Counted from the first letter of the whole stretch, positions 286 to 55,689 are shown. The stretch: 63,377 nucleotides of DNA, filler included, from Octopus bimaculoides (GCF_001194135.2; 5 parts of 4 records of this genome joined end to end with filler, not necessarily neighbours in it), one strand, 5' to 3'. The notes: generated by a model not told the origin, from the letters alone. A program made the numbers and translations.

Positions 286-660
286 TATTTACATTATTTA
301 CATTTGACAGATAGTTGTCTTCATCTTGTTTGTTGTTAATACAATATTTCGGCTGATATACCCTCCAGCCTTCATCAGGCATATGGCATAATGGTTAAGA
401 GTGTAGGCTACTAACCCCAAGATTCCAAGTTCAATTCCAGGCAGTGACCTGAATAATAGTAATAATAATAATAATTATTATTATTATATTGAAAAATACC
501 ATAGGAATGAGAACCTAGATTCGAAATTTCCCCAAGACACCTGATGAAGGCTGGAAGGTATATCAGCCAAGACATTGTGTTAACAACAAACAAGATGAGG
601 ACAAATATCCGTCAAAGGTAAATAATGTAAATAATTCCTCATCTCTTAAATATAGAACTG
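286..660 (+). mobile_element. tRNA-head/(AAT)n/hammerhead SINE-like element, copy 1, with inverted 5' arm
   Basis: Inverted arm 286-379. A box TGGCATAATGG 384-394, B box GTTCAATTCC 429-438. AAT/ATT tract ~452-487. Tail has CTGATGA at 541-547 and stem GGCTG/CAGCC, but GAAACG has decayed to AAGACA. Homologous to 40455-40896 and 53335-54705. Confidence 0.85.
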
Positions 661-785
661 TATTAGGAATGTATTTATATGCAGTTAAATATTTGTCCCG
701 GTCATAGATTGACCAATAGTTTCACATCCTTAAAGTGCTTAGATTTATAGACAACTTATCAGACTCTAATGGTGGAGAGTAGAGA

Positions 786-906
786 CAAACAGACAGACAG
801 ACAGTTAGATAGATAGATAGATAGAGATAGATAGATATAGAGATAGATAGATAGATAGATAGATAAATAGAGATAGATAGATAGATGGATAGATAGATAG
901 ATAGAT
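786..906. repeat. (GACA)n/(GATA)n microsatellite
   Basis: Direct reading. Confidence 0.95.
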
Positions 907-2157
907 CATGTGCATGTTCATCTATATATGCTTGTGTTTATTTTGTTTTTGCTGGTGCTATATGGTGTGAGCATGATGATAAAGCAAGAATAATACCAGC
1001 CTATTCAATTTGGTCCATGTAAAAGTGCAACAGCAACAACAATAACAACAAAAACGACAGCAGCAACAGCTGAATTAGCTTGTTTGCTCATCCTTCATAT
1101 ATATGGGAAGAATCCAGAAATAATAATAGCAAAATAGCAGCAGCAGCAGCAGCAACAACAATAACAGCAACCGCTCGAAGACAAAGATACGAAAGATGGA
1201 AGTAAAACTATGACAATCTAAAGATGGGGGGGTGGGCCGTGCCACGCCCTTTGTCCGCTCTTCTTTCCTTCCTGTTCCAGTGACCTTAATGTCTGTTAGG
1301 AAAAGGAATTGATCACAGGTGGTGATTGGGTGGTGAAAAGCAAGGAAGTGTATCGAATTGGTTGGTCAGTGGAGTGGAGGAGGAGGAGGAGCAGGAATGG
1401 GGTGGGGGTGGGGGGAGATAAAGAAAGTGTTTATTGATTTATTGATCACTGATAGATTGTTGTGACAGCAATAATACTTTCTGGCACGTTTCTTTGCATC
1501 TCTCTCTTTTTCTCTCTGTGAAGATGCAGTTGATCATAGTAACAATTATGATGATGATGATGATGATTATGATGATGATTATGATCATTATTACGATCAT
1601 ATTCCTCATCATCATCACTATCGTCTGATCTTGACAAAAGTTAGAGTAACAATAAAGAAGGCTTTCGATTAATAGTTGCACAACAACAACAACAACAACA
1701 AAAAGCAATATGTGAACAAGATGCAGACAGAATGAATAAATTATTGAGAAAAATTAGCGCAATTAAAACAACATGCACTGTGAAAAAAAAACAAAAAAAC
1801 AATGCAACAGCAATAACAAAAATCAATTGTATTATTAGAAAAGAAGCATTGCAATATTAACATCAACAACAATAACACAGCTAGTAAATGTGGAAACTAT
1901 GAATACTCTCGTCATATAAGATGACATCAGCAACAATAAGAGTAACTCTGGTGTTAGCTGTTCCTATAACATCCACCAGTGAAAAGAACCTGCCACCGCT
2001 ACTTGCACATGAAACACCACCGCTGCTAATGCTATTACTAACAACGGCACTGAAGCTAACAGTCATAATCAGCAGCAAATAAAAATACCGTCTTGCTTGA
2101 AATAGCAATGAAATCTCCCTCAAATCACAACCTGCTATCTTCAGCAAAAATACATTT

Positions 2158-2283
2158 GATATATATATATATATATATATATATATATGCATACATACAT
2201 GCATATATATATATATATATATATATATATATATATATATATATATATATATATATATATATATATATATGCGTATATATATA
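2158..2283. repeat. (TA)n microsatellite (one example of many TA, CA, GA, AAT and GATA tracts in the window)
   Basis: Direct reading; it produces the spurious IYIY ORFs. Confidence 0.95.
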
Positions 2284-2592
2284 TTGTGGCACTCCATCAG
2301 TTATGGTGATGAGGGTTCCAGGTGATGCGATCAGCGGAACAGCCTGCTAGTGAAATTAACGTGCAAGTGTGTTTGTTCAACTAAATCCCCTTAAATGGGT
2401 GCTCCGGCATGGTCACTGTCAACTGACTGAAGCAAGTAAAAGAATAAAAGAATATCCAGGCATTGAATGTTAGCCCTATTTCATTAAGGGATATTTAATG
2501 TTTTGCTCAAGAACACAACGCACTACCCAGTCCAGGAATAGAACTCATGATCTAGAGTGCAACACCTTAAGCACTAGCCCACGTGCCTTAAC

Positions 2593-2770
2593 TACAGAGA
2601 AATACTAACCACATATGTAGTTATAATAGTTAGCAATACAACTAGTACAGTGAAATACTGACAAGGTATGTGGATATGCTAGTTAGCAGTAGAACTAATA
2701 CAGAAAAATACTGACCATATAGTAGATATAATAGTCAGTAGTACAACTGGTATAGAAAAATACTGACCAT
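2593..2770. repeat. Degenerate ~52-bp minisatellite, ~3.4 copies
   Basis: TACAG(A/T)GAAATACT(A/G)AC...TAGT(T/C)AG(C/T)A(A/G)TA(C/G)AACT recurs about every 52 bp. Confidence 0.75.
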
Positions 2771-2774
2771 GCCA

Positions 2775-52865: not shown

Positions 52866-53388
52866 TATATATATATATATATATATATATATATAATTAT
52901 AAGATCTGGTAATTAGTCATATATTAATATATTAATTAATATCGATTAATTATCAGGGGGCCAGCACATTTAAAGAATCAAAGACATTCAGAAATATTAT
53001 CTGCAATCTCAGGGGATTAAGGTACATTTTAGAGAGAGAGAGAGAGAGAGAGAGACATATCCATTTTCTGCGATGGCTTTTGGTAAGCACCGATGATCTT
53101 TACAATTCTGTAAATAATAATAATAGTATTTTATAAGCTTAAAGTTTATAAGCGATTACATATGAAGTAAAAGCAGCTCTAGTATAATAAGTATTATCAG
53201 TCACAAATACTTAACGTATATGCTTTGTGTATTTTCTGGTGGCTACAATAGCGTGGTGGAGTATATACACTTTCAAAGTACCGGGTTGTTAAAACACCTT
53301 AGGCCAGGTAACTCACCTTCAAACTCAATTGAAAATTATTTACATTATTTACATTTGACGGGTATTTGTCCTCATCTTGTGTCTTGTT

Positions 53389-53434
53389 AACACAACGTTT
53401 CGGCTGATATACCCTCCAGCCTTCATCAGGTGTC
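53389..53434 (-). ncRNA. Minimal type I hammerhead ribozyme (family A), core intact
   Basis: GACAC-CUGAUGA-A-GGCUG(GAGGGUAUAU)CAGCC-GAAA-CG-UU-GUGUU; stem I 5 bp (one G-U), stem II 5 bp, palindromic ACGU stem III. Confidence 0.8.
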
Positions 53435-53505
53435 TTGGGGAAATTTCGAACCTAGGTTCTCGTTCCTAAGGTATTTTTCGATGTTAAAAATTATTATTAT
53501 TATTA

Positions 53506-54414
53506 TTTTATGTTTGACTTTTGTTTGCATTTTTATAAGTTGGCTCCAAGTCTCACCCAGAGACCTCAAGAGACAACAAGTTAGAAGTTCATGTAGGTGT
53601 TATGCCTAGGGTACCATATATTTGGATTTGTACAGTTTTGTTGTAGTGAATGTTTAAGAAACTATAAGAAAATTATGTGTTTGTTTTAAAATTTGAGATT
53701 ACAGAGACAGTATTTTACGTAGGATATGGGCAGTTCCCATGAGCACTATTTTTTGAATTTCTGACATTTTGGAGTTTCCTGGTAGCTGAGCTAGGTAGCA
53801 ATCAGCTCCTTTTGCTATCATTCCTAAGGCACCTATGACAACAGGTATTGTTTTCGTCTTCAGGTTCCACATTTTGCTAATTTCTATTTCAAGATCTTTA
53901 TACTTGCTCAGTTTTTGGTAGGTCTTGACAGATACGTTTATATCGATTGGGACAGTCATATCAATGAGAAGGCATGATTTTTGTCTGAAGTCTTTCAATA
54001 TGATGTCTGGCCTATTTGCATCTATCTTTCTGTTAGTTTGAATTGTAAGTTCCAGAAGAGTGAGATGTGATCATTTTCAAACACTGACAATGGTTTGTAT
54101 TTCCACCAGCTTTTATCATGAGGCAGATCCAGGTTTTTTCAAATTACCCAATGAATATATTGTTCAGCTCTATCATGCCTGTTGAGATACTCTGTAGGCG
54201 TAAGAAAACTGCACATGGAGACTACATGATCAATGGTCTCATTTTGTTGATGACATACATGACATATTGTGGAGCTGCCGTTCTTTAATATGTTGGCCTG
54301 GTAGTTCCTTGTAGGTAGGCATTGTAGGTAGGCTGCTATGATAAACCCTTCTGTTTCTGATTTTAAGCCAGAAGCCATTAGCCATTGATGGGTAAGGGCT
54401 TTGTCAACATCGGC
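53506..54414 (-). mobile_element. 5'-truncated R4/Dong-clade LINE (CCHC knuckle + restriction-like endonuclease)
   Basis: LKSETEGFIIAA, CHVCHQQNETIDHVVSMC, NRPDIILKD...LLIDMTVP, KYKDL, IPVVIGALG; flanked on both sides by (AAT)n. Confidence 0.92.
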
Positions 54415-54607
54415 ATTATTATTATTATTATTATTATTATTATTATTATTATTATTATTATTATTATCATTATTATTATTATTATTCAGGTCACTTCGCC
54501 TGGAATAGAACTTGGAATCTTGGAGTTAGCAGCCTGCGCTCTCAACCTCTATGCTATATGCCCGAAATACCTAAGGAATGAGAACCAAGGTTCGAAGTTT
54601 CCCCCAA

Positions 54608-54653
54608 GGCACCTGATAAAGGCTGGAGGGTATATCAGCCGAAACGTTGTGTT
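54608..54653 (+). ncRNA. Family A hammerhead in the inverted arm, core mutated (CTGATAA)
   Basis: GGCAC-CTGATAA-A-GGCTG...CAGCC-GAAA-CG-TT-GTGTT. Confidence 0.65.
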
Positions 54654-55689
54654 AACAACAAACAAGATGAGGACAAATATCCGTCAAATGTAAATAATGT
54701 AAATAAAGAACTGTACCATTTGAGAATGATGGACACCGATGTTTCGCCATTTTTGTGGTTTGTCAACATCAAATACCCGCCAGGGTTGAAGGCAAGTCAG
54801 CAAGGCAGTCCACGATTTATATGTTCATGGCTTGTAAAACCATGTGCTGGCATGCTTGGAATTGCATGCTTAAGAGAAAATTTACATATGAAATAAAAAC
54901 AGCCCAAGTATAATAAATATCATTAACCACAGGTACTTAACATATATGCTTTGTGTATTTTCCGGTGGCTGCAATAGCATGGTAGAGTACAATGTATACA
55001 TTTTAAAAATACACTTACAATGTTTGCTACAGACCTTTCTAAGTATATTCGGCTTATAAGAGAAACAAGATCGGTGTCATTTAAAAAGCAGTGATAAATT
55101 CACTGCCACGCCATCCCACATCTCTATGGTTGCTGTTGTTTAAATATTTAATTTTCCATGCTTAACTTCAAATTGAGAATTTAAGTAGCATTTATATGCA
55201 AAATATGATTGAAAATTGAGAAAACTTGGAATAATATGACATTTATTACTTCTAATTTTCAAGGTGCTGAAGACAGTAGAATGTTTAGATTAAATTCCCT
55301 GTTCCATTGCTAAAATGGAAGGGAAACAATGTAAGCAAATAGCCAGGAAATTGAAGAGAAGAAGTTAATCGGTTATATTGACACAGTATTTGACTGGTAC
55401 ATTATTTTATCGACTTCGAAAAGCTCATCGAAACAAATTACCACCTGGCATTCTGTTCGACTTTTTGTATAAAAGTGAATGTATAAGCACCTATGCGCGC
55501 GCGCACACACACACACACACACACACACACACACACNNNNNNNNNNATGAGAGCACACACACACACACACACACACACACACACGCACACACACACACAC
55601 TCATGCACGAACACACACACCAAACCACACACACATACACTTACATGTGATCACTCCTAAAAGATTCAACCTCATTTTTTTAGGAGTCA

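Follow-up and report, generated by a model that had tools for sequence, protein, structure and literature searches.

A tRNA-headed octopus repeat with a hammerhead motif and inverted arms, probably copied by Penelope-like enzymes

Introduction

In published definitions, SINEs are parasites of LINE enzymes. Three tRNA-derived SINEs of octopus, OK, OR1 and OR2, were reportedly described by Ohshima and Okada in 1994. Elements of this kind are short, abundant and dispersed, with a tRNA-like head carrying A and B boxes; OR1 and OR2 have been classed as CORE-SINEs (PMC4824008; PMC4758252; PMC5804259). A small-RNA head on a non-autonomous element with a non-LINE helper is described for Helenus and Ajax, whose helper is an LTR retrotransposon; the main text of that report does not contain the word 'Penelope' (PMC10886601).

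The endonuclease-bearing Penelope/Poseidon, Neptune and Pen2a_Av elements and Anolis PAc are described as leaving an inverted, 5'-truncated arm, a one-sided tail of about 30 nt and a short target duplication, together with a minimal type I hammerhead with palindromic stem III and a short palindrome at the inverted junction (PMC3846280; PMC8557442; PMC11167929; PMC4209133). Duplications of 8-10 bp are reported for rotifer Penelope, the terminal repeats of such elements being described as sufficient to mobilise unrelated sequence in trans (PMC3846280). In work in vitro with the Anolis Poseidon protein, the tail is set by internal starts, and insertion proceeds unaltered when the ribozyme is mutated (PMC11167929).

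Schistosoma SM-alpha and Sj-alpha are short non-coding repeats in which a type I hammerhead accompanies a tRNA sequence or Pol III promoter; they are arranged in tandem, cut into monomers by the active ribozyme, and carry the promoter at the monomer 3' end (PMC6765202; PMC4918200; PMC8490949). Animal non-LTR retrozymes are also short, non-coding and hammerhead-bearing, are related to Penelope terminal repeats and have been proposed to use Penelope enzymes; they are defined by tandem repeats and circular RNAs, and the accounts cited describe no tRNA head or Pol III promoter (PMC7229834; bioRxiv 10.64898/2026.07.22.740005). The sampling described in the latter preprint does not extend to cephalopods.

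The present study characterised a repeat found in a window of 63,377 nucleotides of Octopus bimaculoides DNA (GCF_001194135.2), which joins five parts of four records with filler, and compared it with public contigs and RNA runs.

Results

Three insertions of one unit

The window holds three insertions of one shared unit, in agreement with a preliminary description of this DNA, which had overlooked that copy 3 is split within its AAT tract by a 0.9-kb LINE fragment (Table 1). The unit measures about 290-320 nt, has no open reading frame, and in all three copies runs from a tRNA-like head through (AAT)n, a spacer and a minimal hammerhead motif to a 3' stem-loop. Blastn against the whole window placed heads at 378-453, 40587-40660 and 54562-54485 (82-86% identity to the copy-2 head) and located six body arms, all within these three loci; it returned no head or body elsewhere in the window and no head-to-tail tandem in any copy. 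An open reading frame with a Penelope reverse transcriptase and GIY-YIG endonuclease is absent from all three.

Each copy is preceded by an inverted, variably truncated version of the 3' part, giving a head-to-head layout in which the sense arm begins at the head in every case. The left arm has a fixed outer end and a variable inner one: its length is 94, 125 and 142 nt in copies 1, 2 and 3, and the stops lie, as previously described, at the hammerhead core (379), in the TTA tract (40580) and after GGTATTT (54565).

Table 1. Features of the three insertions, with positions counted along the window
Feature	Position	Strand	Remark
Copy 1, left target-site duplicate	278..288	+	10/11 match to 668-678; 3-nt overlap with arm end
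Copy 1, left arm (inverted 3' part, end A to hammerhead core)	286..379	-	blastn 90% to right arms
Copy 1, tRNA-like head with A- and B-box matches	378..453	+	2 nt (GG) common to left arm
Copy 1, (AAT)n/(ATT)n tract	454..487	+	
Copy 1, right arm: spacer, hammerhead motif 536-581, 5' half of stem-loop, end A at 635	488..635	+	
Copy 1, tail, end A to end B	636..665	+	first 9 nt pair with 593-601; contig ends cluster at 635 and 660-665
Copy 1, right target-site duplicate	668..678	+	
Copy 2, left arm, extending into AAT tract	40456..40580	-	27-nt internal deletion at 40488/40489
Copy 2, head with 5-nt leader	40581..40659	+	leader and head start form a short palindrome
Copy 2, (AAT)n tract	40660..40725	+	
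Copy 2, right arm and tail	40726..40899	+	core letters preserved; stem I and the first stem II pair disrupted
Copy 3, upstream target-site duplicate	54717..54727	-	9/11 match to 53336-53326
Copy 3, tail-end (end B) remnant of left arm	54707..54715	+	matches last letters of copy-1 tail; deletion of ~19 nt before it
Copy 3, left arm, sense on +	54565..54706	+	core position 8 mutated
Copy 3, tRNA-like head	54485..54563	-	
Copy 3, (AAT)n tract, upstream part	54415..54484	-	
LINE 3' fragment, 5'-truncated, inside copy 3 AAT tract	53510..54414	-	coding 54414-53702, frame broken near 54050
Copy 3, right arm, stopping at end A, without tail	53335..53490	-	
Intact minimal type I hammerhead, copy 3 right arm	53389..53434	-	predicted cut between 53394 and 53393

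The fragment inside copy 3 is the 3' part of a restriction-like-endonuclease LINE, which we take to be Dong/R4-like; it encodes a CCHC finger and a PD..D restriction-like endonuclease (zf-RVT, E 3e-5). It has 107 relatives, the best 65% identical and many with a reverse transcriptase domain, and a PDB search with it returned no match. That a LINE did enter this tract lends something to the idea that head and tract are an independent tRNA SINE with an (AAT)n terminus, which landed in the AT-rich middle of a palindromic element, MITE-like or derived from Penelope, as does the seemingly frequent extension of left arms to the TTA tract (copy 2 and the loose-end consensus of public run X23). We nevertheless regard such an origin as very unlikely, given that all three heads occupy the same place ahead of the same spacer with left arms of differing length, that no duplication flanks head-(AAT)n as judged by eye, and that the window has no free head. 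Depth points the same way, the spacer being 1.2-1.8 times as deep as the head in all four runs; heads have so far not been found to outnumber bodies, as they would if head-(AAT)n occurred mostly without the tail. A MITE with fixed arms is itself unlikely because left-arm stops vary in both window copies and public contigs, and fixed-length terminal inverted repeats with symmetric ends were not found, the ends being asymmetric.

3' ends, tail and target duplications

Two 3' end points, A and B, lie about 28 nt apart in both window copies and public contigs. Among the best-supported loose ends listed for runs X1 and X4, those at 635 comprise 308 and 309 contigs, and each position from 662 to 665 has 121-194. 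The stretch between them forms a tail of 25-30 nt, slightly below the published 30-40 bp, and each insertion has this tail or its remnant on one side only, right in copies 1 and 2 and left in copy 3. The 3' stem-loop is moderately stable (fold z -2.31 in copy 1, -0.98 in copy 2). Apparent target duplications of about 11 bp flank two of the three insertions; with insertion ends placed by eye and 4 nt of slack, the copy 1 duplication, which is clear, was equalled by 8 of 3000 random right flanks and that of copy 3, which is weak, by 59 of 3000 random flanks, and none was found for copy 2, for which 1539 of 3000 random flanks were as good. Together with the inverted truncated arm and a minimal hammerhead of the dimer type, these features support well the Penelope-like mobilisation proposed in the preliminary description, which did not note the paired 3' ends, the one-sided tail or the duplications.

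Hammerhead motif

A minimal type I hammerhead, earlier ascribed to each unit, is upheld as a motif and as a family-majority sequence, the majority letters in public contigs restoring the core, but core, stem I and stem II are all intact in only one of the six arms (copy 3 right). The remaining five have core or stem changes or the 27-nt deletion; in the right arm of copy 1 the second core strand is mutated. The intact motif has a 5-bp stem I, a core at 53429, an extra A, a stem II of 5-6 bp and a palindromic stem III without a loop, in agreement with the minimal hammerhead features described in PMC4209133. A descriptor composed after the motif had been seen matched twice in the window, both times inside the element, and in none of 60 block-shuffled windows. 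Thermodynamic folding does not yield the hammerhead, monomer and free dimer adopting other folds; stems I and II built by hand give -12.2 kcal/mol, and the stem III palindrome as a duplex gives -3.5.

Any self-cleavage probably lies outside the copying step, since copies continue through the predicted cut site to end at A or B, and no pile-up of ends appears there among the loose ends listed for public contigs. Loose ends at 575, considered as a cut-site signal, were rejected as an effect of mismatches in copy 1; their consensus, with a median of 9-10 letters, equals the family sequence. These observations bear on whether the element is a retrozyme of the SM-alpha type, whose tandem transcripts the ribozyme would process into templates, either unit-length or circular RNAs. 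The union of tRNA and type I hammerhead in schistosome repeats (PMC6765202; PMC4918200; PMC8490949) and the dependence on Penelope elements proposed for animal retrozymes (PMC7229834; bioRxiv 10.64898/2026.07.22.740005) speak for it; the beginning of copies at the head rather than the cut site, the lack of tandems in all three copies and the position of the two ribozymes of one insertion on opposite strands speak against it. Of the nine listed head joints, just one maps to the cut site, and there the letters lying between the joined parts run on through the core. We consider this reading very unlikely.

Head and transcription

A-box and B-box matches, each in two of the three heads, bear out the tRNA-derived head previously described, although the head is only a degraded tRNA: ARAGORN at default settings called none in the heads, and Rfam gave no tRNA and no hammerhead match, only chance-level or microsatellite ones. 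At an 80% threshold, ARAGORN drew a cloverleaf in one of the three heads, a score equalled by 2 of 300 shuffles of that head. The claim that no T4 run separates head from ribozyme holds for copies 1 and 2 and fails for copy 3 (T5 at 53490-53486). Reads from public RNA runs, a library type poorly suited to Pol III transcripts, cover the head equally in both directions and have no start or end pile-up at it. From the head itself and the 5' end falling at it, Pol III transcription is likely.

It is unlikely, in our judgement, that the copies are instead 5'-truncated stubs of a long or autonomous Penelope-like element, or Pol II read-through copies, with the tRNA-like piece as a passenger rather than a promoter. 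Inverted stubs with one tail are described as a normal Penelope product, and Penelope terminal repeats as often beginning with a short palindrome, like the leader here (PMC8557442; PMC3846280), which recurs in the X23 loose-end consensus; bodies also exceed heads by about 4 to 1, and the RNA reads carry no Pol III signal. Yet the region 5' of the head is free of coding sequence in the three window copies and the nine listed head joints, the X23 consensus before the head is TTA-like and mixed (agreement 0.56), and truncation alone would not place the start of the sense arm at the head in three copies out of three.

Abundance and joints in public contigs

Head and body are both present in public contigs of three organisms, and the 8,087 to 32,573 contigs aligned per run support the high abundance suspected from the window, where three copies per 57,004 called bases give a Poisson range of 0.6-8.8 in a stretch that had been selected; copy number was not taken from summed contig depth. 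Statements on contigs rest on 15 of 137 and 15 of 21 joints and on 24 of 1169 and 24 of 531 loose ends listed, each joint resting on a single contig. Nine of 15 listed joints (21 found) connect the head to the left arm, at nine different arm positions, and five of these nine fall no more than 7 nt from the start of the head. Depth over the 3' part exceeds that over the head by a factor of 4.2-4.6, so that many arms seem headless and could come from a headless master.

For the arm-forming step only, the joints may be set against a near-complete palindrome, made by fold-back self-priming or from two full-length cDNAs, of which one side was later deleted. Two contigs, and perhaps a third, have sense-head letters between the inverted head and the arm, the left arms of copies 2 and 3 carry internal deletions, and Arkhipova et al. 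interpret junction palindromes as self-priming (PMC3846280). What the left arms have lost, however, is the portion adjoining the centre; their distal end is kept, its outer limit being fixed at A or B, and in copies 1 and 3 arm and head join directly, with 2 shared letters. Arms of the same locus are not consistently closer to each other than to those of other loci (9/94, 7/74 and 4/95 / 6/75 differences), a closeness that age can hide. We consider this route rather unlikely.

Search for a helper and for relatives

No autonomous partner was found, either in the Penelope-like remnant present in the window, whose terminal repeat differs from that of the element, or in a protein search from the arm translation, where the single open frame across the arm (48 codons) matched no longer protein. 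In tblastn of 151 proteins against the arms, five low-complexity matches of 18-21 residues were discarded. Exact-motif scans of metagenome, viral and prokaryote collections gave 0 matches. No such element emerged from the literature searched, a body of sources distinct from Repbase, Dfam and the 1994 octopus SINE paper; the supplements of PMC13282606, its Zenodo library and the supplements of the retrozyme preprint may name the family.

Discussion

A tRNA-like head, a ribozyme-bearing end of Penelope type and a mirror layout together point to a short parasite that likely uses Penelope rather than LINE enzymes. It is reasonably probable that the element is Pol III-headed and non-autonomous and is copied by a Penelope-like reverse transcriptase/endonuclease from uncleaved RNA. 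Pol III would start at the head and, in units with no T4, read on into the flank. A Penelope-type protein would then bind the 3' stem-loop and nick both strands of an AT-rich target, and reverse transcription would begin at an internal position of the RNA, either end A or end B, in the manner of the Anolis Poseidon protein in vitro, for which neither a defined RNA 3' end nor poly(A) would be needed. Of the two cDNAs, one would extend as far as the head, where the RNA has its 5' end, and the other would usually stop early; they would be joined via 0-2 nt of shared sequence. Were both to stop early, a headless pair would result. The hammerhead would be inherited with the terminal repeat, and its cleavage would require a dimer or assistance from a protein; as cutting would remove the promoter, headed copies would come from uncut RNA.

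In contrast to Penelope/Poseidon, Neptune, Pen2a_Av and PAc, the octopus element has no open reading frame, and its sense arm opens with a tRNA-like head followed by the AAT tract. Unlike SM-alpha and Sj-alpha, its copies are dispersed, end away from the cut site, and carry Penelope arms and tail and, in two of the three, apparent duplications. It differs from OK, OR1 and OR2 in its internal repeat tract, two 3' ends and inverted arms, a separation made by description only, so that it may equal a 1994 family. Neither a LINE-type 3' end (LINE-derived tail, poly(A) or simple-repeat terminus) nor dependence on a LINE was found; because its 3' ends are two ends of Penelope type, the element is SINE-like rather than a textbook SINE. 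Whether it represents a class of SINEs served by a third type of helper, tRNA-headed, Pol III-promoted and raised to very high copy number in octopuses via Penelope enzymes, is in our estimate evenly balanced. The family probably sits misclassified among octopus repeats; 893 unclassified SINE families are reported among recently active insertions (PMC13282606).

A tRNA-headed element with the full Penelope footprint would extend SINE parasitism to Penelope enzymes, and the parasite would be freed from 3'-end requirements because the Penelope reverse transcriptase initiates inside the RNA. How Penelope forms inverted arms and one-sided tails is called undefined in PMC8557442; with the RNA 5' end fixed at the head, thousands of copies would make a natural data set on both. 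The inverted arms of 90-140 bp may also form double-stranded RNA, in animals whose editing is exceptional (PMC5625713). If the reading with a third type of helper is true, each insertion writes a ready-made RNA hairpin, and may thereby feed the heavy A-to-I editing of octopus transcripts.

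Results

Loci and unit structure

Blastn of the window bore out the three loci of the preliminary description, which together hold three heads and six body arms, and returned no further family member in the window outside them. The sense unit consists of a head (~75 nt), (AAT)n, a spacer (~50 nt), a hammerhead motif and then 59 nt to a first 3' end point (end A) or ~87 nt to a second (end B); an inverted left arm precedes the head. From core to end, the arms differ pairwise at 4-12 per ~95 positions. Copy 3 owes its greater length to a 5'-truncated LINE in its AAT tract; this fragment has a zinc-finger match and spans the last 240 residues of its 107 relatives, many of which carry a reverse-transcriptase domain. 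An octopus host is likely, since the one relative found for a protein fragment of the window bears the name of an Octopus protein.

Features of the window
Feature	Position	Strand	Description
Copy 1	286-665	+	Element
Copy 2	40456-40899	+	Element
Leader and head start of copy 2	40580-40589		Can pair as a 3-bp stem closed by four loop bases, presumably of the type known as extra stable; either the leftover of a head-to-head centre or a hairpin at the RNA 5' end may account for it
Copy 3	53335-54715	-	Element
Direct repeat flanking copy 3	55012-54882; 53281-53156		130-140 nt, 82% identical, outside the target duplication; probably an older tandem duplication later entered by the element
LINE 3' fragment	6435-6678	-	Second, shorter; same kind as in copy 3
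Broken Penelope-like element	32210-33944	+	RT and GIY-YIG, matching full-length relatives by tblastn (Pfam GIY-YIG E 0.02)
Inverted fragment	34440-34841	-	Adjoins the broken Penelope-like element
Terminal-repeat stub	61149-61303	-	From the broken element's terminal repeat; different hammerhead-like motif
Fold-back	61482-62088		600 nt, arms 74% identical, hammerhead-core-like heptamer in right arm
Dispersed short repeat family	5065-5377; 7879-8293; 8768-9005; 15732-16023; 20821-21201; 56247-56364; 60307-60657		Unrelated to the element's head or body (blastn)
Second dispersed short repeat family	11117-11324; 11938-12095; 12398-12992		Unrelated to the element's head or body (blastn)
Reading frame	48707-49090	+	Presumably Penelope-type endonuclease linker (by eye); no Pfam match
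Reading frame	24166-24450	+	Presumably mariner transposase (by eye)
Reading frame	34755-35290	+	Presumably LINE reverse transcriptase (by eye)

Head, transcription and hammerhead motif

Neither default ARAGORN nor Rfam called a tRNA on the three heads. At the 80% threshold ARAGORN gave a 72-nt cloverleaf for the copy 2 head, and 2 of 300 shuffles were called too; at 70% two of three heads were called, but so were 18-25 of 300 shuffles. The A-box and B-box patterns each match two of the three heads. The head may resemble tRNA-Arg. The claim that no T4 run separates head from ribozyme holds for copies 1 and 2, where T4 is absent from the entire sense unit, and fails for copy 3, where T5 precedes the spacer. 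Family reads numbered 7,978 of 12.9 million, 6,427 of 12.0 million and 3,938 of 11.5 million in the RNA runs, with both directions equal and no strand bias or pile-up of starts or ends; these reads therefore neither support nor contradict Pol III transcription.

In the right arm of copy 3, the motif comprises a 5-bp stem I, the core, one extra A, a stem II of 5-6 bp and a loop-less palindromic stem III, features shared with the minimal hammerheads of Penelope terminal repeats, for which weak cutting, of dimers only, is reported in vitro (Cervera and de la Pena, PMC4209133). The motif is damaged in the other five arms, and majority letters of public runs restore the core. Energy folding did not yield the hammerhead structure, nor did any Rfam model match the predicted motif.

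Ends, tail and target duplications

Contigs of the public sequencing runs X1 and X4 have their best-supported right-hand loose ends at window position 635, which is end A of copy 1 (308 and 309 contigs), and at 662-665 (121-194 contigs per position). The segment between ends A and B, the tail, corresponds to the Penelope tail in size and place; in the Anolis element that tail is bounded by two internal starts of reverse transcription at a stem-loop (PMC11167929). Here end A is enclosed by a 9-bp stem, with a fold z of -2.31 for copy 1 and -0.98 for copy 2. The tail stands on the right in copies 1 and 2, and copy 3 has a left remnant and none on the right, in agreement with Penelope tails described as "often only at one end" (PMC8557442). 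Putative target duplications match at 10/11 positions around copy 1 (equalled by 8 of 3000 random flanks) and 9/11 around copy 3 (59 of 3000); flank comparison found none around copy 2. Rotifer Penelope insertions are reported with 8-10 bp duplications and junction palindromes, and their terminal repeats alone suffice to mobilise unrelated DNA (PMC3846280).

The family in public runs

The stretch or part of it was present in 20 of 24 listed runs, from source organisms A, B and C, and 13 of the 24 contained half or more of its words; placement of contigs and reads on the element covers seven. Copy 1 received 28,206 and 32,573 contigs, and the head and left arm of copy 3 received 16,263 (A), 20,190 (B) and 8,087 (C), with depth over both in all three organisms. 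Left-arm stops vary here as in the window: the 15 joints listed, of 21, include nine from head to left arm, at nine different arm positions, each resting on one contig from X4 or X7, and five of these nine fall ≤7 nt from the head start. Two listed joints, one resting on one contig and the other on 11 RNA reads, link the 3' part of the head to a downstream arm, and headless arm-to-arm joints are among those listed for copy 1. Depth on copy 1 relative to the head was 1.2-1.8 for the spacer and 4.2-4.6 for the 3' part, ratios that are not a copy number; reads may also be lost more often over the head, where the reference is diverged. On a cautious reading, heads accompany bodies, and a head is missing from many arms.

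T>C and A>G differences from the copy 1 reference at 305, 358, 371 and 527 were 10-34% in RNA runs X22/X23 and 0.1-5% in DNA contigs, an excess expected if arm hairpins were edited, the DNA being unmatched to the RNA samples. At 306, 387 and 573, however, G>A and C>T differences were likewise raised, and the excess may therefore stem from a small number of highly expressed loci.

Discussion

The element behaves like a Penelope insertion and resembles a SINE at its 5' end. It does not qualify as an autonomous Penelope element or a MITE, and is neither a textbook SINE nor, judged by the three window copies, a tandem retrozyme. Its ingredients have precedents: the combination of tRNA and hammerhead is reported in schistosomes (PMC6765202, PMC4918200, PMC8490949), non-autonomous derivatives of Penelope have been described or proposed (PMC7229834, PMC8557442), and LTR elements include non-LINE parasites that carry a small-RNA head (PMC10886601). 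The literature searched, which did not extend to Repbase, Dfam or the 1994 octopus SINE paper, yielded neither a cephalopod hammerhead SINE nor an element that combines a tRNA head and a Penelope footprint; the main text of the curated Octopus vulgaris annotation describes no such element (PMC13282606). A family so abundant is probably already catalogued in some repeat library, under a generic name.

On either side the outer end is fixed at A or B while the inner end varies, which means that each flank adjoins the 3' part of the element. This arrangement fits an insertion that would be primed from both target strands at internal starts, as the Anolis protein can do (PMC11167929). The sense arm begins at the head in all three copies, consistent with a template RNA that would begin there, and the arm-head junctions share 2, 0 and 2 letters in copies 1, 2 and 3. 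Because the copies continue through the predicted cut site, and cutting would part the putative promoter from the stem-loop, the template was likely uncut RNA; in the Anolis system, insertion in vitro was unaffected by ribozyme mutants (PMC11167929). Alternatively, the left arm may have formed as a palindrome and then been shortened by deletion, since two or three contigs show head-to-head centres.

No autonomous partner was found by blastn of the window, a protein search with arm translations or tblastn of relatives; the broken Penelope-like element was rejected for this role, having no match to the element's arms. Taken as a whole, we consider it reasonably probable that the family is a Pol III-headed, non-autonomous unit copied in trans by Penelope-like reverse transcriptase and endonuclease from uncut RNA.
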